A stretch of 64,000 nucleotides of DNA from Candidatus Obscuribacterales bacterium (GTDB taxonomy: Bacteria > Cyanobacteriota > Vampirovibrionia > Obscuribacterales > Obscuribacteraceae), in NCBI GenBank assembly GCA_965228855.1, contig CBDDIJ010000003.1, positions 2,208,001 through 2,272,000 of the forward strand. The letters are read 5' to 3'. The translations under genes were made by a program, and so were the position numbers. Under the pieces are notes generated by a model. It saw only the letters and a program-made list of their open reading frames with translations, had not been told where the DNA came from and did no database searches. Shown piece by piece: positions 1,301 through 44,662 of this stretch. Position 1 is the stretch's first letter; the number at the start of each line of letters is the position of its first letter.

Positions 1301-1771
1301 CGATTACGCGATGAAACTTTGCCTTTTGAATACATTGCGTTCCACTTGGATATCTGCATGAACAGCGCCTTTCCAAATGTAAGGTAGCGAAAATTTTCCC
1401 TAGTTCTAATTAAGAAAACGCCAGCATTTGACACTCGAATTCTACAGCGACGAAACATTCACGCAAGTGTTCCCAGATTGGAGAGGTTTAATAAAACTCG
1501 TGTTATCAGACTCGAATCCGGCACCTCGGAACTCTTACAGCTAACTTTCGGGCCTTTTTGGGCGACCCCCTGCGTATCTTCCGTCTTTACTCTGACCGGC
1601 CAGTTGCTAAACTTCCTGAACTCGGCGATCACGAGACCATCACAACAGCATGTGTTGTGGGGCGGCTTTGCTGCGCCTTAAAAAATTCGGCTCATCAACC
1701 TTGAGCCAAGAAAACCGAGTGTTTTAACTGCCTCCATCGCAGCAAAAGGGCATGGCATCACAATTCCACTG

Positions 1772-1785
1772 GCATCCCGGAATCC
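1772..1785 (+). promoter_or_regulatory. Conserved 14-bp cis element GCATCCCGGAATCC, 32 nt upstream of the giant gene start
   Basis: An identical 14-mer lies at the same 32-nt spacing upstream of the paralog start (42143-42156, minus strand). Confidence 0.65.
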
Positions 1786-1817
1786 TGGTCAACCGTAAAT
1801 CCTAACTGGTAAACAGA

Positions 1818-32165: not shown

Positions 32166-32331
32166 AGCGTTTCCCGGGCGGTCAGCAGCGACATCGCAAT
32201 CACCTTATTCCCGCTCCAAGAAGTCGTTAAACGCTGTCCAGCGCTGACTCAAGCCGAAATCCGGCGTCAAAAGAACTCGGCGAAAAGGTCGCAACTCAGG
32301 CTCCCAAACTCAGCGTTTCGGCCGGCTCTAA

Positions 32332-33335: not shown

Positions 33336-36300
33336 TTATTTCATCGCTGTTACGCTTGGCTCTGAGTAGACTCGGAAGTCACCGTTTCCACCGATGTGCA
33401 TGAGAACTGCAGACGTCTTCATGAGCTTGTTGCTCATGCGGCGGGCATTATCATGCTTGGAACTCATGATTTCCTTTAACGGCTTAACCGAACCGATTGC
33501 ATGCAGAGTGGCAAACTCCGCATTGAATGCTTTGATACCATTACCATGATTGACGGCGGCTACAGACTTGTAACCGACGCTTTCCATCGGGTTCACGCGC
33601 TCGAAGCCATGATTAGAGCGGGTGGTGAGTACCGTGCAGCGACCAGGGCTCAAAGTCGTAGCTCTGGCTCCGGCGGTGACGCGCACGGACCCCTTACGCT
33701 CATCGTGCAGGTCATAGACACCGAGCCTGGTGCCATCAAGCACCACTAGCGCCACCGAGCCTTTCGAGACTTCAATTGTGCCCATCGGCGTTTCAATGCG
33801 AGTATCCTTCGCTGGAGCTAGAACGATGGTTCCTTGACGGAGTTTCGCGACTTCAGTGGATGTGACACCAGGCGCGCTACCATTGCCTGTTCCGGTCGCT
33901 CCAATCGTCGAACCTGAGATACCACTGTTTGCGGAGCTACCACTTAGCATCGTTGCCGAGCCGAGCCCCAGATCTTCGTCGCTCCAAACATAGGCATCAG
34001 TGAGGTAGTCACAGGCGGTTGAAACCGCTTCAGACGTCTGCACTGCCGATGACAAACCAACCACACTATTTTCAGCCTGCGCGGTATTGCTGACGGTGCT
34101 GAGCAAGTCAGTCGGCAGCGGCGAGATGTGCTGGGAGTTGAAAGTGGAACCGATGCTCGAGTTCGCAGAACTCAAATTCAGCGGAGCAGAATCTGAGGCG
34201 ACAAAGGTCTCTGTCGCTGGTTGAGCTAGCAATGATGGCATGATGGCCGCGGCAGAACGACTCGGAGGGTCAGCTTCCACAACGACGTTGCCGCCGAAGA
34301 TGATTTTCTGTGTCGAAGGATTCGCCGATCCATTATTGATGATGACGTCCTTGTTCGTACCACGCGTTTCATTCGACCCGACGACCGTGAATCCGGAAGC
34401 AGCACTGAAATAAGACTGACCCTTGCCAGTGTTGTTCACAGTGACACCAGACGGCGGAGTCGTGTTTGTTGGCTTCTTCGGAGGAGCGCCAATCGCAATG
34501 TTGACGTCCTTGCCTTTGCCTTGGGTTTCAATAACCGTATTGGCACCCAAATTGATATTTCCGGTGGTTATGTCGGTGTTAATCAATGTCAGCGCACCAT
34601 TATTGGCGGTGATTACCGAACCATCGTTAACGGTCAAACCTCCGGTTGCAGCCGTCACTGAGATGCTGCCTTTTGCAGTGTCGATGTCGTTTAGAGTGAC
34701 ACCGGCTGCGGTTGTGAGTGTGAAGCTGCCACCGGCACTGGAGTCATTAACAACTAGAGGCGTGGCTCTCTGGCTCGTGAGATTTACATTACCAGAGGTT
34801 TCAGCGTCAACACTCGCGGCTTGGAAGACAAAGCTCTTCTTGCCGATTGCGCCAGTATCCGCGATGAGAGTCAAGTTATTGACCGTGGTCAAGACCACAT
34901 TTTTCCCTGTCAGAAGCGTACCTTTGCCGCCCGCAGTAAACTTCACGTTTTGAGCCGACAAGATTCCAGCACTACTGTCTAGCTGAACCCCACTTCTGAC
35001 GTTCAACACTTCTATGTTGCTCGCCGTTAAACTTCCTTGCACGCCGTTCTTGGGAGTCTTACTCGCACCAATTGCGAAGTTTTTCGAATAGTTAGAGGTG
35101 AGATTAATCGAACCACCCGTACCGGATGCATCAATTCCACCGCGCACGACCAGTGCGCCGGACTTCTTATCCTGGCTCGCACTTCCGGTAGTGAAACCAC
35201 CGCCAGAGAGCTCGCCGTTGAGGATACTTGGCGCACCCACAACATTTGGCGCAGTCGTACTTATCAGAACACTGCCGCCGTTGGTTCCGCTTGCATCAAT
35301 TCCGCCGACAGAAATGTTTCCAGGACCGATGATTAAGATGTCACCACCATCAGTGGCACCACTTGCATCAATGGCTCCAACTGATATGCTTCCTGCACTC
35401 TGCGTTCCATCGCTAGCAATCAGCGTGACGTTTCCGCCAGCGCCTAAACCGCCGGCAGTGTTGACAGTCACGTCAGACAGATTGATGTTTCCGCCGATCG
35501 CGCTTGGGGTAATGCTCGAATAAGTTACGGCTTCATTGCCTACGGGTCCAACTTGTCCACCGGTTGAAGGAGTGAAACTGAAACCGGCAAGGACTGTTAA
35601 CGCCCCACCAGATGCACCACCACCGAGATTTATCGTAGTGGCCGAGCCGAAGTTAACGTTACCCAGAGCGATGATTGCAAAGTTACCATTCAAAATCACA
35701 TCGCCGCTGAGGGTCACATCACCTTGAGAATTGGCAATGGTGCCGACACCTTCCGGAGCTCTGAATATGAGCGGATTTCCTACGATACTTCCGGCAAAGT
35801 CATATCTTGACGAATTCAATGTTAGCGTCTGCAATCCTTCGATGTCAGCTCCTGCCAGAACGTTGAGAGAACCGGTGTTCTCGATCACATTCATCTCAGC
35901 TTCGCTTATATAGGTTTGAGTTCCCCCAAGAGAAAGGTCGCCGTCGTTCGCTGTAAAGCGAACAAGCTGTCCTACTCCAGTAGCGTTGAAGTTTCGATTG
36001 CCACCGCTACCGTCAACAGTTAAACCGCCAGCACCAATCGGACTTGAAACATCAATTGAGTTAGCAGTCATGTCGGCCTGGGCAGTTAGCACCGTGGTCG
36101 AAACATCGATATCCCCTGATGTCGAAATATTTGCAATCACGGTGACACCCGCCAGAGCGGTTAAATCCAGTGACTGAGTTGTCCCCACAGACCCAAGTTC
36201 CATTGCTGTTGACGCATTATTCTTGAACACGAGGGCACCGCCACCGGTAGCGAACAAGGTGTTCACCGCATTGTCAGCGTTAAGATTGGCCAAACCGGTT

Positions 36301-39300
36301 AACGAGTTAACAGTTAAAAGATCCGCCGTGATGATCGCACCAGCCGTTTGAGTGATACCACTTCCAGCGCTCAGAGTAAGCTGATCGACGGAAATTGCTG
36401 AATTCAGCGCAATGGTTGTTCCAGCGTCCAGTACAAGCAAGCCGCCCTGTCCCGAGGTGCCGACCTGGACTTCAAACTGATTAGCTCCAGCACCCAGGAT
36501 GTTGGTCAATGCGCCATTCGATTCGATAGTGACGGAACCAGCCGTTCCACCACCTAGTGACGCATTAGCTCGCAGGTCAACGTTCAATCCATTGAAGTTA
36601 TAGCTGTTGGCACGAAGGGTGATCGAGCCGCCGTCTTGCGCTGTCGCGCCTTCGCCGGAAGCTTCGATAATGACTGGTCCGTTGATGAAACCTAAAGTTC
36701 CTTGGTCCGCATCAACAGTGATGTGACCTCCATCGCCTGTGTTTTGATTTTGTTGGAGAACAGTACCACTGATATTCACACCGCCGGTTCCTCTATTGAG
36801 GATATTGACAGTGCCACCATTTCCGCTGACCAAACCACCGTCCGCTTCGATATTGCCGACGCTGTTAGTGCCACCCGCTCCAATTGCCAGGACTTCAGTG
36901 CCATTTGTTTCGATTGATAGAGTACCAGCATTCCCGACAGCGTCAGGCGTGATTGATATCCCGCCAATTTGCACGTTTCTTCCGGTAAGGATAGTGACAT
37001 CGCTTCCATCAGTAGCGACCGCGGTTCCGCTTGTCATGCGAATAACCGAATTGGTCGCGGAGCCCGGACTGAAGACTCCAGAAGTCTCGCTCGCAGTGGT
37101 GCGACTGAGAGTGATACCACTACCTGCAGAGCTTGCCGCCACCGTGACAGATCCGGATCCAGTCGCTCCACCTTTAATATTGATTTGACCGTTACCTATG
37201 TTGACCGCGTTGCCGCCGTCGTTGTTAGCGCCGATGATCAGCACATCGCCATTCGTATCACTTCCACTTCCACCTGCTCTAATTGCGAAGGCGTTGTCAT
37301 CCGCGAACAGACGACCGAGACTTCCAGAGTTGCTGGCGTAGGCCACGACTGTAATATCGCCCGCGTCGCCCTGACCAGCCGTGCTGCGACTGTCAAGCCC
37401 CTGGAAGTTATTGCCGAAGTTGATGTCGCCACCACCAGCGGTGCTGCCCGTGATTGTTACGCTTGAGGAGTCCTGCGTATAGGTAGCACCAGCCACAAGC
37501 GTGATGTCACCACGGTCGCTCGCCCCGGCGGTGGTGATCGACATTGCGCCACCGTTGTTGTTGATACTGCCACCTGTGACGAACAAGATACCGCCCGAGG
37601 TAGCAACCATGTTGCCACCTCGCATATCAATTTGACCCGTCGCGGTGACAGAAATTGAGGCCGCGCTGATGCCTTTGATGTTCGCCGTAGAATTGGAATC
37701 GGTCAGACCGGCGTTGTACTGAACGCTGCCACCAGTATTGGTGACTCCCTGCATTTGCACGCCTCGACCGGCATTAGCAATCAGTTTGCCGCCAGCCATG
37801 ACGATTCCGCCTTCGCCGTTACTCTGGAAGATTTGAGAATCCGTTGCGACGCCGCCATCAAAGGTGGTGCTTATCACAGCATCAGATTTCTGAATAACAC
37901 CATTGGCTGGTGCGGCGGTGAGCATAGTCACATCTCCTGTGCCCGCCTGCCCGCCTGTCACGTCGATGTCGGCGTCGATTTGAACGCCAGTGCCGTTTCC
38001 AGCTTGTCCGGAAATCGCGGTAATGTCTCCGTTATCACCGGTGCCGTTACCACCTGTCTTCAGCGTCGCGGTACCGCCGACAAAAATGGAGTTGGAGAAG
38101 ACGTCCGTGCTGGTCATCCGAATGAGGGCGATATCACCTCCGGTACCATTGCCGCCTAAACTACGAGTGTCGATTCCAGCGAACGTATTGCCCAAACTGA
38201 TTGAAGTCGACAGGTTTGAACTTCCTGTAATCGTGACATTCACTAAGTCCTGAGAGAAAGTCGCGCCCGCTACCAGCACGACGTCGCCGCCGTTGCCCGA
38301 TGCACTGGAGGTGTTGAGAGAGGCGCCGGCATTGATGTTGGTGATGGCGCCTCCGGCGACCAATACGATGCCACCAGGAGCGGTGATGCTGGAGCGAATG
38401 TTTAAACTACCGGTCGAGGTGGCAACGACGGTTCCGTTGCCGAAGGTGTTTAGTGTACCGAGGTCTGTAAGCCCTTCAGCGGATAAACGAATCCGACCTG
38501 CACTCAACGTTGTATTCGTCAAATTCAACGTGTTACCGGATCGCATGGTTAACGTGGCGTTGCGGTCAACGTCCATCGTCAAACTGTTGTTAATACCATT
38601 GATGTTGTTGTTGGCTTGAACGGCTCCATTCGTAAAACCAACGGACGTGTAAGCACCGGTGGTTTTGCTCAGTGTCGCACCGTTAATCGGCTGTGCTGAT
38701 AACAGGAGTATATTTCCGGTTCCGCTGGTAGTGCCGTTGGTATCCCATATGCCACCAATGTTGATACCACTACCACCCTGGTCGTTACCAGCCATGACGA
38801 TAATCTCGCCATTGTTTCTTCCCGCTCCCGCGCCTTGAGAGACAACGTCAGCGCTGGTATCAACAAATACTGTTCCGCGGGTACCGGTAGCGGTTTCGCG
38901 ATAAGCGATTAAGTTGATTTGACCGCCGCTAGCATCACCAATTCCTTGAGAATCGATTTGATCGAAACCGTTGCCGAGATTGATGTTGCCGCCGGTCGAC
39001 GATGGACCCGTTATAGTTAAATTCGAAGCAGTTTCGGTAAACAATGCACCGGCAATCAACGAAATCGAACCGGCCTGCGTGAGTGCACCGGGATTGGTGT
39101 TGAAATCAAAGCCGGAATCAATGTTGACTATGTCGCGACCAGCGACGACGAGAATACCGCCTCCGCCCGAAGCTGTTGTATTCCAGCCTAGGCTGCCGCG
39201 CAAGGTGACATCCTGCGTGGAGGTGACGACAATGCTGCCACCTTGTATTGTCCGAAGCTGTACGTCAGAATCAGCTCCACTGGCGTTTATACGAACGGCT

Positions 39301-42110
39301 CCAGTCTGCGCGGTGACCGTTCCTAAATCGATGGCAAGGTTCGAACTCAGACGCCCAGATACTATGTCGACGTCTCCGCCATTAGTTTGAATTGTCGAGC
39401 TAGAACCTGATGATATACCACTATTAACAACGGCACCGCCAAGGAAGGTGCCTGATGCAATGCCGCCGTTTACCTTGGAAAGGACCGCGCCAGTAGCTGG
39501 AGTTCTTGTATGCAGGGTGACATCACCCGAACCATTGTTCGATGCGCCGCTTGTATTTACGCCATTTCCTAGAGCGATGCCTTGACCACCATCATTCCGA
39601 CCAGCAACAACAACGAAGTTGCCATTGCTACCAGTGCCGGTACCGCCTGTGGTGATATTCAGAACACTGTCGGTGAAAACGCCTCCATTAGCAGAATTAC
39701 CTGTGCTCGTATAAGCGACCAGAGTAATGTTTCCGCCACTAGCATTGAGTCCGGTGCCTCGTGAATCTAACGCAGTCAAACCGAAGGTTAGATCGACTGC
39801 TGCGTTATCCGTCGCGTTGGATGGACCAGTGACGGTAACAGTGGTAGCCGTTTGAGTGAAATTAGCACCAGACACCATAGTGATGTCTCCGCCCTGACCA
39901 ACTGCGGAAGTAGAGATGACAGAGTTGGCTGGCGGTAGAATTACCTTGATTTCCTCACCGGCAACCATCAGTATGCCACCAGGGGCGATGATGCTGTTTC
40001 TAATGTCGATGTTCTGTGTTGTGAGAAGAGTCAGACTTCCAGAGACATTGATACCGTTCCCTATCTGAATCGTGCCACCGGAAGTCACTGAATACGATCC
40101 TGCGGTAACACTGCTATTCTGAACGTTCGTTGAATCAGCAGATACGGTGACTGAGTTTCGAGCATTCAGGGTAGATGTGGCAGTAACTGAGCTTCCCGTC
40201 GTCGAACCCGGTGCAAGTGATCCGCTCGTAACCGCTCCGGTAGCATCAATTGATAGAGTGCCCACGATCTGCGGTTGACCGCCGGCTAGCAGTATATTTC
40301 CGGTTCCCGCTGTGTTATTCGTTCCTGCGCCGCTGACGTTTATCGCTCCAGTCGTGATGCTGTTGGCAAACATCGAAACAGTCCCATTGCTGAAACCGTT
40401 AGCGCCGGTAGATGTGATAGTCGTAGCGCCACCCAGGTTGATGACACCGGAGGTGGTGCCCTCGAATGCAGCGAATGTTATGTCACCGCCATTTGCGGCG
40501 GAGCTACTGGCGTTGAAAATCGGAGCAGTACCAGTGAAGGTGATGGCACCCCCGGTGGCAGATGCACCAGTCACGGTCAGCGGGCCTGTACCAGTATGCG
40601 CGGCACCAGCAATGAAGAGAATGTCCCCGCCATCGCCGGTATTCGAAGTGTCAAAGGTCAGACCACTCGCGATATTTATATTTCCTGTAGCGATATAGGT
40701 CAAGGGACCACCACCGGTCGTTTGGCTTGCGCCTACGTTAAGGTCCCCCCCGCTTTCGAACAACGGGTCGCCGCTAGTTACCGTCTCTCCTATGTTTAAC
40801 GTGGAGGTGGCATTGACTGAAGCGGTACCTGCGTAAGTGTTCACGACGCCAGTCAACTCTCCGACGCTTACGCTGACATGACCGTCGCCACCGTTCAGAT
40901 TCAAAGTCTGCGAATACCAGTCGCCACCAGATACGGTGGTATCAACTTTTTCTGTAAAACCTGCCTGCCGGAAATTGATAGCCCCATTCAGAGCATTGAT
41001 TGTTCCACCTGTATTATCAACCGAGATTGAAGCCGGCGAAGCAGTATCAAAGTTGACGTTTCCACCAGTCGAGCTAATTGAGCCGTTGTTTACGACAACC
41101 GAAGATAGCAGTGTCACATCGGATTGAGCAGACACAGAGCCGCTGTTCGCGAGCGTACCGCCAGCGGAGAGCGTTACCGTTCCATTGCTCGAAATCGAAC
41201 CAACGTTGTTCAAATCTCTATCGGCGGAAACCCTCAAATCAATCGGTACGTCGACGGCGTCATTTGCTGATGCCACCGCATCCGGTGCCTGAGTCGTAAT
41301 TGAGCCTGCGTTTGTTACATCGCGAGCACCAATGTTTGCTTTATTGTTCGCAGCATTACTGGTCAGCGCATACATGCTTCCATAGTTAACAAGCTCGCGA
41401 GTAACCTTGAAATCACTGTTTCGACCGAAGTTGCCTATAGCTTCGACGCCTTCGGAGATTGTCAACGAGGATGCTTTGATGTTGCGTCCGGCGTTGTCGA
41501 TGCTTCCGAGGTTGAAGCTTCCATCTACACCGCGTCCCGAGCCATCCACGACCAGGCTTTGCGCATCGCCATCAATCACTTGCTGAAGCGCTACGAATTC
41601 TGCAGCGGTGACTTTCGAACCACTGGTGAGTACTTTCTGCTCGCCGCCGACATTGACGGTATACGACGAAGCGTTGGAGAAGAGGTTATCTCCGAGAACG
41701 ATTGAGCGTGTGTCTGAAGTCAGATCTAACTTCAACCCTTTGGAGACGTTTCTAGTTCTACCTTTATCGGTTACAAAAGTAGTCTGCGTCTCGAATCGAG
41801 GAACAATCGGCGTGACTATCGGCTGAATTACAAACTTGTCATCAACCACGGGCGTGTATTCAAAACGCGGACCATTCGCACCACCAGCGTTTCCTCTGGC
41901 ATCTCGAATTTGCTGGACGTGGTCACGCCTCTCGGTGCGGAACATTTGGCGCAACTCTTGTCTATCCAATCCCGGGTTCGCATCACGGAAATCGCGAAAT
42001 GAAGTTCTATTCTCGTTTGCGAATGCCGGACCTGCCAGCAGCAGCGTTCCTGCCAATGCTATCTTTCCCGTTGCCAGCAGATTGCGACCTTGAGAGTCTG
42101 TGGATTTCAT
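33336..42110 (-). CDS. Large (~2924 aa) exported beta-solenoid repeat protein, paralog of 1818-30410
   Basis: Start placed at ATG 42110, which has GAGGT upstream and signal peptide MKSTDSQGRNLLATGKIALAGTLLLAGPAFA|N. It shares KVTAAE, GGDW, APGGI/SGGI repeats, ADPPSR, TLSPGR, VKPLK and SSKH with the paralog and ends in TAMK. Confidence 0.85.
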   Translation of the reverse strand: MKSTDSQGRNLLATGKIALAGTLLLAGPAFANENRTSFRDFRDANPGLDRQELRQMFRTERRDHVQQIRDARGNAGGANGPRFEYTPVVDDKFVIQPIVTPIVPRFETQTTFVTDKGRTRNVSKGLKLDLTSDTRSIVLGDNLFSNASSYTVNVGGEQKVLTSGSKVTAAEFVALQQVIDGDAQSLVVDGSGRGVDGSFNLGSIDNAGRNIKASSLTISEGVEAIGNFGRNSDFKVTRELVNYGSMYALTSNAANNKANIGARDVTNAGSITTQAPDAVASANDAVDVPIDLRVSADRDLNNVGSISSNGTVTLSAGGTLANSGSVSAQSDVTLLSSVVVNNGSISSTGGNVNFDTASPASISVDNTGGTINALNGAINFRQAGFTEKVDTTVSGGDWYSQTLNLNGGDGHVSVSVGELTGVVNTYAGTASVNATSTLNIGETVTSGDPLFESGGDLNVGASQTTGGGPLTYIATGNINIASGLTFDTSNTGDGGDILFIAGAAHTGTGPLTVTGASATGGAITFTGTAPIFNASSSAANGGDITFAAFEGTTSGVINLGGATTITSTGANGFSNGTVSMFANSITTGAINVSGAGTNNTAGTGNILLAGGQPQIVGTLSIDATGAVTSGSLAPGSTTGSSVTATSTLNARNSVTVSADSTNVQNSSVTAGSYSVTSGGTIQIGNGINVSGSLTLLTTQNIDIRNSIIAPGGILMVAGEEIKVILPPANSVISTSAVGQGGDITMVSGANFTQTATTVTVTGPSNATDNAAVDLTFGLTALDSRGTGLNASGGNITLVAYTSTGNSANGGVFTDSVLNITTGGTGTGSNGNFVVVAGRNDGGQGIALGNGVNTSGASNNGSGDVTLHTRTPATGAVLSKVNGGIASGTFLGGAVVNSGISSGSSSTIQTNGGDVDIVSGRLSSNLAIDLGTVTAQTGAVRINASGADSDVQLRTIQGGSIVVTSTQDVTLRGSLGWNTTASGGGGILVVAGRDIVNIDSGFDFNTNPGALTQAGSISLIAGALFTETASNLTITGPSSTGGNINLGNGFDQIDSQGIGDASGGQINLIAYRETATGTRGTVFVDTSADVVSQGAGAGRNNGEIIVMAGNDQGGSGINIGGIWDTNGTTSGTGNILLLSAQPINGATLSKTTGAYTSVGFTNGAVQANNNINGINNSLTMDVDRNATLTMRSGNTLNLTNTTLSAGRIRLSAEGLTDLGTLNTFGNGTVVATSTGSLNIRSSITAPGGIVLVAGGAITNINAGASLNTSSASGNGGDVVLVAGATFSQDLVNVTITGSSNLSTSISLGNTFAGIDTRSLGGNGTGGDIALIRMTSTDVFSNSIFVGGTATLKTGGNGTGDNGDITAISGQAGNGTGVQIDADIDVTGGQAGTGDVTMLTAAPANGVIQKSDAVISTTFDGGVATDSQIFQSNGEGGIVMAGGKLIANAGRGVQMQGVTNTGGSVQYNAGLTDSNSTANIKGISAASISVTATGQIDMRGGNMVATSGGILFVTGGSINNNGGAMSITTAGASDRGDITLVAGATYTQDSSSVTITGSTAGGGDINFGNNFQGLDSRSTAGQGDAGDITVVAYASNSGSLGRLFADDNAFAIRAGGSGSDTNGDVLIIGANNDGGNAVNIGNGQINIKGGATGSGSVTVAASSAGSGITLSRTTASETSGVFSPGSATNSVIRMTSGTAVATDGSDVTILTGRNVQIGGISITPDAVGNAGTLSIETNGTEVLAIGAGGTNSVGNIEADGGLVSGNGGTVNILNRGTGGVNISGTVLQQNQNTGDGGHITVDADQGTLGFINGPVIIEASGEGATAQDGGSITLRANSYNFNGLNVDLRANASLGGGTAGSVTIESNGALTNILGAGANQFEVQVGTSGQGGLLVLDAGTTIALNSAISVDQLTLSAGSGITQTAGAIITADLLTVNSLTGLANLNADNAVNTLFATGGGALVFKNNASTAMELGSVGTTQSLDLTALAGVTVIANISTSGDIDVSTTVLTAQADMTANSIDVSSPIGAGGLTVDGSGGNRNFNATGVGQLVRFTANDGDLSLGGTQTYISEAEMNVIENTGSLNVLAGADIEGLQTLTLNSSRYDFAGSIVGNPLIFRAPEGVGTIANSQGDVTLSGDVILNGNFAIIALGNVNFGSATTINLGGGASGGALTVLAGFSFTPSTGGQVGPVGNEAVTYSSITPSAIGGNINLSDVTVNTAGGLGAGGNVTLIASDGTQSAGSISVGAIDASGATDGGDILIIGPGNISVGGIDASGTNGGSVLISTTAPNVVGAPSILNGELSGGGFTTGSASQDKKSGALVVRGGIDASGTGGSINLTSNYSKNFAIGASKTPKNGVQGSLTASNIEVLNVRSGVQLDSSAGILSAQNVKFTAGGKGTLLTGKNVVLTTVNNLTLIADTGAIGKKSFVFQAASVDAETSGNVNLTSQRATPLVVNDSSAGGSFTLTTAAGVTLNDIDTAKGSISVTAATGGLTVNDGSVITANNGALTLINTDITTGNINLGANTVIETQGKGKDVNIAIGAPPKKPTNTTPPSGVTVNNTGKGQSYFSAASGFTVVGSNETRGTNKDVIINNGSANPSTQKIIFGGNVVVEADPPSRSAAAIMPSLLAQPATETFVASDSAPLNLSSANSSIGSTFNSQHISPLPTDLLSTVSNTAQAENSVVGLSSAVQTSEAVSTACDYLTDAYVWSDEDLGLGSATMLSGSSANSGISGSTIGATGTGNGSAPGVTSTEVAKLRQGTIVLAPAKDTRIETPMGTIEVSKGSVALVVLDGTRLGVYDLHDERKGSVRVTAGARATTLSPGRCTVLTTRSNHGFERVNPMESVGYKSVAAVNHGNGIKAFNAEFATLHAIGSVKPLKEIMSSKHDNARRMSNKLMKTSAVLMHIGGNGDFRVYSEPSVTAMK

Positions 42111-42142
42111 ACGCCATACCTCGATAACAATATTGAGCGAAG

Positions 42143-42156
42143 GGATTCCGGGATGC
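42143..42156 (-). promoter_or_regulatory. Conserved 14-bp cis element GCATCCCGGAATCC, 32 nt upstream of the start
   Basis: The + strand ggattccgggatgc is the reverse complement of 1772-1785. Confidence 0.65.
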
Positions 42157-42355
42157 GAAAAGGTTCCAAAGCAAGACAACAGGCGCACCACCTATGGTGC
42201 CCTGTCACCGCAAATTTCATTACATATAAAGTACGGAGAAAAGCGTATCACGCAGATCCGCACACTGTCCACGCTGCGGGCTTGAGAGCAGGTTCACAAG
42301 AAGCACGGTCACAAAACCGTCACATCCGATCCACGTTCAGTTTCCCGATACTTGC

Positions 42356-42683: not shown

Positions 42684-42790
42684 TTACTTGGCAGCGCCGG
42701 CAAAGCAACTGACGTTTCACTCACTTAACCGCGCGTTGCATAGCAACTGACGTTTCAATCACTTAGCCGCGCGTTGCATCGCAACTGACG
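42684..42790. repeat. Tandem 38-bp repeats copying the ctpA 3' end
   Basis: gcaactgacgtttcactcacttaaccgcgcgttgcata (42705-42742), gcaactgacgtttcaatcacttagccgcgcgttgcatc (42743-42780), then gcaactgacg. A degenerate partial copy starts at 42684. Confidence 0.9.
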
Positions 42791-44117: not shown

Positions 44118-44662
44118 CTTTTACATCACGACTCCCTTAGACACAAACGGTTTCTAATTTGCCTACGCGCCAGGCACTCTGGGAAACAGGGGCGGTATCG
44201 AAAAACCTAGGTCTCATCAGCGTTTCGATAATGCTGGCCGCATTTGTAAATGACGTCATCGCCTCCCGGAGTCGTGAAAGATATGGTGACTAGTGCTTTA
44301 TACCCGTTGCACCAATCTTTTAAGCAGGTGTATCGCTTATTGGCTGCGGCTTTCCAAAATCGAGAAGATTTCCCAATGTCGTCAACGACGATCCCCTGTA
44401 CGTTTACACGAAAACTAGCCGTCGCAAAACGGCTTCAGAGGCTGGAGTACAGGGTTTGGAGATTCCTTTCTCGTCTTGAAGACAAGCGCCATACTAATCG
44501 GGTGATACCATAGAGTGTACTCAAAAATTCCGGCGGTTGCCATGGTGAATTTCCCTGGCCTTTTTCACCGCCCGGTAGGCTTGCGGGCGGTTTTCCTTTG
44601 AAAACTCCTGAGCGCCAAAGGTACTACATGGCAATTCATATTAATAGGTAGGATGGGAGCAA

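Follow-up and report, generated by a model that had tools for sequence, protein, structure and literature searches.

Proteins of the CsrA/RsmA family, partnered by the RNAs CsrB and RsmX/Y/Z, recognise sites with an invariant GGA core that usually lies in a hairpin loop. The general layout of the Csr/Rsm systems comprises short sites starting with GG, variable spacing of these sites in leaders, and multi-copy titrating RNAs (in part after PMC2662882). In Prochlorococcus, the loop of the Yfr2-5 RNAs carries a GGAAACA repeat (PMC1242208), and an Rsm-like titrating role has been proposed for Yfr2, though a search for an RsmA homologue is reported to have found none (PMC2662882). The STRRs of filamentous cyanobacteria are tandem units of 7-8 nt in untranslated DNA whose function is described as unknown, with an effect on transcript stability or translation coupling suggested (PMC2670836). 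The ops/RfaH systems (UpxY, LoaP, TaA) rely on a strand-specific element in the leaders of long surface-structure genes (PMC7819879). The literature searched holds no description of the element reported below, nor of regulatory motifs or small RNAs of Obscuribacterales; subscription papers and supplementary motif tables could bear on this novelty.

In this study, we analysed a 64,000-nt stretch (the window) from the genome of a Candidatus Obscuribacterales bacterium, one of the non-photosynthetic relatives of cyanobacteria (G000; 8.2 Mb, 95% complete), in which the leaders of two genes for giant proteins, A and B, share a 14-mer. This 14-mer consists of a 7-8-nt unit, GG-H-R-W-C-Y, standing twice side by side in the same orientation, and among 104 Obscuribacterales family genomes arrays of the unit occur in three settings, namely 5' leaders, the spacers between stop codon and terminator, and one stand-alone stretch. 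The arrays are laid out like Csr/Rsm sites but are not a member of that group: GGA is not invariant in the unit, whose third position admits A, C and T (47, 13 and 15 of 76, with G in 1), the units have no flanking stems, long arrays mostly belong to mRNA 3' ends and not to RNAs of their own, and no CsrA was found in the source genome (PF02599, 0 matches among 28 candidates, the control being detected in 3/14 genomes). The Yfr2-5 GGAAACA fits the unit; there is, however, no Yfr2 hairpin here, and the Obscuribacterales unit is degenerate and mostly found in mRNAs. The covariance model of the Yfr2/Cyano-1 family (RF01701) gave 0 matches in the source genome at E<=1 (control detected in Synechococcus) and none in 16 array loci. 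STRRs share the unit length and the untranslated location with the arrays, but differ in sequence and lineage, and the Obscuribacterales units are degenerate around a conserved core, irregularly spaced, in a single orientation and without the STRR hairpin; HU leaders and 3' arrays hold mixed units 7-17 nt apart rather than near-perfect head-to-tail heptamers. The element differs from ops in forming multi-copy arrays and in being present before short genes and at 3' ends as well, and a genome scan found one NusG-family gene and no paralog. RNA polymerase pauses at a consensus of G-10 Y-1 G+1, which the tandem does not fit by eye.

The original prediction noted an identical 14-mer, GCATCCCGGAATCC, 32 nt before both ATGs, at 1772-1785 (+) before ATG 1818 and at 42143-42156 (-) before ATG 42110, which is correct. 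The whole genome holds 2 exact copies, no further site at 1 mismatch and 47 sites at <=2 mismatches. In an empirical null from which 3 near-duplicate pairs were dropped, exact sharing of a 14-mer at the same offset was seen in 5 of 7,471,045 leader pairs, the A/B pair included, so that chance does not account for the match. Neither recent duplication nor gene conversion accounts for it, A and B being distant paralogs: the two proteins are about 40% identical N-terminally (40-41% in the N-terminal domain), fall in different clades of a quick tree and share no DNA match longer than 44 nt. Both start codons, for which the match had been taken as support, are sound, as signal peptides follow and orthologs begin at the same place. 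GGTA at -10 to -7 is indeed present before both genes, but it is an ordinary ribosome-binding-site variant and not special to the element: among the 6067 called genes, a GGTA starting at -10 was counted 60 times and at -20 to -16 about 14 times. The 32-nt distance is merely near the mode, other tandem copies ending 6, 31, 36, 41, 76 and 92 nt before starts. The features of both genes are collected in the table, including a third unit of the gene A array beyond the 14-mer that had been overlooked. A candidate promoter of gene A, picked by eye within a segment that sister genome G007 retains almost intact and sub-threshold in a consensus scanner (0 found), would place the units inside a leader of about 200 nt.

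Features of genes A and B in the window (units were scored in bits with two models trained outside G000)
Feature	Position	Strand	Remarks
Candidate sigma70-type promoter, gene A	1586..1613	+	-35 at 1586-1591, 16-nt spacer, extended -10 at 1605-1613
Unit 1, gene A array, GGCATCA	1754..1760	+	7.3 and 9.3 bits; GGCATCT in G007
Unit 2, gene A array, GGCATCC	1771..1777	+	First half of the 14-mer with the preceding G; GGTATCC in G007
Unit 3, gene A array, GGAATCC	1779..1785	+	Remaining half of the 14-mer; its end lies 32 nt from the ATG; GGAAACC in G007
GGTA at -10..-7, gene A	1808..1811	+	Ordinary ribosome-binding-site variant, outside the element
Gene A, 9530 aa	1818..30410	+	Largest of a 45-gene family of secreted Gly/Ser/Thr/Asn-rich proteins
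Gene B, 2924 aa, ATG 42110	33336..42110	-	Distant paralog of A; one weak haemagglutinin-repeat hit
GGTA (within GAGGTA) at -10..-7, gene B	42117..42120	-	Ribosome-binding site; GAGGT kept in the B orthologs of G005 and G002
Last unit, gene B array, GGAATCC	42143..42149	-	12.6 and 12.9 bits; ends 32 nt before ATG; kept in G007
Middle unit, gene B array	42151..42157	-	Eroded in G000 (first G absent); intact GGCATCC in G007
First unit, gene B array, GGAACCT	42161..42167	-	5.6 and 6.5 bits; GGAAACC in G007

The proposal of a strand-specific cis-element in the leaders thus held, but its dedication to the giant genes did not, as none of the 43 other paralogs has the 14-mer within 2 mismatches. The 14-mer was accordingly rejected as a family signature; it is exact in 2 of 41 relatives searched, the source genome being one. 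Absence before other family members, named beforehand as grounds for refutation, applies to the exact 14-mer but not to the single unit, which a model trained on other genomes found in 15/43 other family leaders against 429/3875 (11%) in the background (p 4e-5, a value that like the others ignores kinship) and in 6/43 on the antisense strand. A palindrome had also been read into the 14-mer, which is instead a direct repeat: the A ortholog of G007 alters two bases inside it and leaves the unit consensus intact, family leaders match in the sense orientation in 7/43 cases and in the antisense in 0/43, and variants hold the direct-repeat consensus, most of them breaking the dyad. In the kinase leader L081 one change in the 15-mer discussed below is symmetric, and two other variants break the pair. 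Gene B of G007 retains the 14-mer with an added G; the B orthologs in G005 and G002 have a single related 7-mer unit only, and the closest match of A in G001 is without the tandem. That A and B have the same 14 letters would follow from the scant room for variation once two near-optimal units stand 8 nt apart, the commonest spacing.

A 15-mer, GGNATCCCGGAATCC, gave 15 matches in 14 of the 104 family genomes (control 0), all on the sense strand and upstream of the first ATG, for which 4% of random positions qualify. The matches lie in nine orthologous kinase leaders and before genes for a PAS histidine kinase, a response regulator, a polyphosphate kinase and a second giant protein (9475 aa), besides A and B, 5 of the 15 being independent of A and B; the presence of the element before such genes in relatives contradicts a dedicated operator. 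Removal of the last base added 14 matches, 8 coding and 6 non-coding, the latter including an HU leader and a long intergenic array. A hairpin formed by the 15-mer was considered and dropped, since shuffled sequences fold at least as well as the leaders (z +0.17 to +0.97). HU leaders from 30 genomes, these loci being the closest to a motif-found query, carry arrays of 2-4 GG-H-R-W-C-Y units 7-17 nt apart, upstream of a gene of 93 aa. Leader arrays thus precede genes for HU, kinase, response regulators, polyphosphate kinase and giant proteins, as named from Pfam or NCBIfam. One leader array, with 11 units, precedes a gene for a 229-aa GGDEF-domain protein in one genus (g48; L274:1470-1625 (+), and L273) and surfaced via a looser four-unit pattern, which at 9 matches against 14 in the control was not above control.

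Units end 6-92 nt before starts, mostly 31-41, and are spaced 7-17 nt apart without helical phase; the spacing seen most often in HU leaders is 10 nt (21 of 44, the majority from one genus). Arrays mix units that differ at the degenerate positions, the central one being A in 33 and T in 30 of 76, and some stretches are locally perfect octamer tandems. In 15 close-ortholog alignments, some of them rough and all with kin dependence, GG and C were variable in 22/165 columns, against 67/275 for the other unit positions and 214/997 for the flanks. Single units might form GNRA-like or triloop mini-hairpins, a reading that was rejected since the stems do not extend; positions -1 and +6 can pair in 19 of 105. 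Genes A and B are encoded on opposite strands within a single replichore, so that the orientation of the arrays follows transcription and not replication, which discards a replication-polar motif.

A three-unit pattern gave 20 matches against 4 in the control, and 17 distinct loci after 3 overlapping ones were dropped. Fourteen of these lie between the end of a same-strand gene and a terminator-like hairpin 5-95 nt further on; two of the rest are at gene starts and one is coding. The 3' arrays, of up to 13 units (in a reductase tail, L126), follow sepF, the genes for both kinds of ribonucleotide reductase subunit, and three further genes with a weak name or none, and they share their consensus with the 5' ones. 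The stand-alone stretch (L054:1372-1625 (+), genome G020) holds 14 intergenic units without a same-strand gene upstream and ends in a 13-bp terminator, which makes it a candidate RNA of about 250 nt. It has no Rfam family match, occurs in 1 of 104 genomes apart from one 33-nt partial match, and has no counterpart at the syntenic xer-pbp site of the source genome. The latter has a 6-unit intergenic cluster at C5:105289-105400 (+) (L267), which lacks a clear terminator and a neighbouring gene on its own strand; the cluster was detected in 1 of 5 genus relatives, is partly kept in G007 and is possibly a small RNA. The 16 array loci compared with Rfam matched no family except flanking tRNAs. In a phylum sample the three-unit pattern occurred in 12 of 401 genomes, always in coding sequence or plain tandem repeats, and in 0 of 175 of the largest same-class family, whose genomes are small. 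Two oxygenic cyanobacteria have near-perfect, intergenic, STRR-like tandem arrays of the same octamer (L138 in G320; L142 in G182).

Hold-out tests indicated that one consensus serves both gene ends. A model built from 3' arrays only found 35 sense against 1 antisense unit in 13 genus-level HU leaders, all 13 with at least 2 units (300 shuffles: mean 4.4, max 11), and in the HU leaders of 11 further genera 19 against 2, with at least 2 units in 4 of 11. Conversely, sepF tails (n=35, a single one from each genus) yielded 28 sense and 5 antisense units with a model from HU leaders plus L054 (shuffles max 12). Arrays are patchy: 5 of the 35 tails have at least 2 units, the number behind sepF ranges from 0 to 8 across the family, and copy number differs within a genus. 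Genome-wide in G000 the signal is modest: the model from HU leaders plus L054, which also gave the 15/43 family leaders above, found 254 sense against 150 units at 20-60 nt before starts, and paired units in leaders numbered 33 against 20; the leader of gene A ranks first among real leaders and that of HU third. The 3' regions of this genome show no overall excess (89 against 90; 173 against 174), and its stop-to-terminator spacers hold just 56 against 35 units.

As for proteins that could read the unit, Hfq was not found in the source genome with PF17209, a weak negative because cyanobacterial Hfq is divergent, and a sigma54 gene was not found either. RNA-binding candidates in this genome comprise 6 RRM matches, 1 cold-shock domain, KhpA and KhpB; the flanks of the RRM and cold-shock genes, including an RRM gene that we take to be rbpA-like, were searched for an array of their own, as in autoregulation, and none was found. 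Across the family genomes, the leaders of this presumably rbpA-like gene (L235-L264) have a conserved box resembling TGCGA(T/C)AAT about 35-45 nt before the start, together with a GGTA-type ribosome-binding site. One of the 6 RRM matches is a eukaryotic-looking protein, presumably splicing-factor-like, encoded in AT-rich DNA at C4:48618-48833 of G000; the small contigs C1, C4 and C6 may be foreign. The genome also has 19 sigma70-family genes, two of which we assume to be SigB/SigF-like, and a sense-biased -10-like box, GGG-[A/C/T]-ATAA, stands before about 100 genes, peaking 20-50 nt from starts with a weak TA 17-18 nt upstream; this box likely marks an alternative-sigma regulon, and in the window it is found at 44298-44305 (-), upstream of an S41 protease gene, and at 32205-32212 (-).

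We see about an even chance that the 14-mer represents two units of message-strand arrays serving as sites for a putative regulator that binds single-stranded RNA sequence-specifically. Such a binder fits best because of the message-strand orientation at both gene ends, the non-helical spacing, the fixed GG and C in an otherwise degenerate unit, and the closure of long arrays by terminators. Judging from their place downstream of -10-like boxes and upstream of terminators, the units are probably transcribed. The predicted protein, bound at -64 to -32 of both giant genes, would set the level of ribosome loading or the stability of the transcript; for the long 3' arrays and the 14-unit candidate RNA we predict that they titrate or hold it, as CsrB/RsmY-type RNAs do for CsrA/RsmA. 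An account that needs no dedicated protein, and which we consider unlikely though worth serious attention, is that the arrays are STRR-like repeats, seeded and enlarged by slippage in untranslated regions, whose message-strand orientation is maintained by weak selection acting on the structure or decay of the RNA. The fast change in copy number behind sepF, local duplications in kinase leaders, the octamer tandems of the two oxygenic cyanobacteria and the very occurrence of STRRs in filamentous cyanobacteria (PMC2670836) would all suit slippage, but it does not readily account for the recurrence of the unit in one orientation at unrelated genes, for units that vary at degenerate positions and still keep GG and C, for the spaced, non-identical units of HU leaders across many genera, or for the enrichment of single units in leaders without any tandem. 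Similarly unlikely is a protein that binds DNA, be it a transcription factor or nucleoid protein on direct repeats or a transcription-coupled reader of the non-template strand, and that forms a roadblock or represses immediately downstream of promoters. Direct repeats with a period of 8-11 nt suit some DNA binders, 10 nt is the preferred HU spacing (mainly in one genus), and HU and cell-cycle genes are among the targets; against this, the spacing has no helical phase, the orientation tracks the transcript at both gene ends, and arrays between stop codon and terminator, like the stand-alone array with a terminator of its own, are hard to read as operators.

The other explanations carry far less weight. 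A reading of the units as -10 boxes for an alternative sigma factor, related to the GGG-H-ATAA box, is suggested by a shared GG-H-AT core, by the number of sigma70-family genes and by the peak of units 20-60 nt before starts; it is improbable, since no -35 or positional signal was seen upstream of 112 GG-H-ATCC sites, unlike GG-H-ATAA sites, since conserved TATATAA-type boxes precede the units in kinase leaders, and since 3' arrays reach 13 units directly before terminators. The ops-like antitermination or translation-coupling site of the original prediction, dedicated to the giant genes and read by a NusG paralog, has in its favour the sense-strand leader position, the best-scoring real leader at the largest ORF of the genome and the enrichment of units in giant-family leaders. 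With a single NusG-family gene in a genome 95% complete, the exact motif absent from 43 other paralogs and the same element before the short HU gene and after the stop codons of short genes, we hold it to be very improbable. Slighter still is the probability that the units pair with RNA, either a small RNA seed or the part of the 16S tail immediately 5' of the anti-Shine-Dalgarno sequence: G-U wobble would be allowed at the R and Y positions, and some single units lie at ribosome-binding-site distance, but a 7-bp duplex is broken by the about equal A and T at the centre and by the free third position, rRNA complementarity to the 15-mer extends over 7 nt at most, and the 3' arrays are far from starts. 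Finally, that chance, shared ancestry or gene conversion put the same letters in two functionless leaders can hardly be credited; orthologs at greater distance have not kept the exact 14-mer, and a few chance pairs exist genome-wide, but A and B are distant without extended DNA identity and the unit passes hold-out at unrelated genes.

Returning to the single-stranded-RNA binder, its tentative extension, which we rate as possible but on balance doubtful, would be a global post-transcriptional network of Obscuribacterales with Csr-like logic and a different protein. This protein would read GG-H-R-W-C-Y in the leaders of HU, signalling and giant secreted-protein genes, would be buffered by 3' arrays of cell-division and ribonucleotide-reductase mRNAs, acting as sponge tails with a link to the cell cycle, and by lineage-specific sponge RNAs, and might belong to the same family as a partner of the Yfr2 GGAAACA repeats. 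A real binder would mean that the sister group of oxygenic cyanobacteria has a global regulator of Csr-like type that is not CsrA, would provide a testable function for STRR-like repeats, and would mean that mRNA 3' ends evolve into sponges quickly and repeatedly. The 13-unit and 14-unit arrays, together with natural mutants, are ready baits, so that the binder is directly findable by pull-down.

The giant proteins themselves form a family of 45 members in the source genome and of 24-57 matches per genome across the genus. They are secreted, 900-9500 aa long, with a common N-terminal and mostly also a common C-terminal domain, the latter standing alone in four proteins of 340-380 aa. Gene A matched no Pfam and no NCBIfam family in the two stretches scanned for each, and a single-sequence model of the giant protein fold was of low confidence (pLDDT 51) and had no PDB match at E<=0.001. 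On the quick tree of the family the units are scattered (13 changes; shuffles 13.8). A different hexamer, CCTGGC, is sense-enriched within 120 nt of the start in giant-family leaders (9/43 against 1.3 expected; antisense 0). At 42700-42790 of the window, 2.4 copies of a 38-nt tandem repeat run across the stop codon of the S41 protease gene upstream of B.
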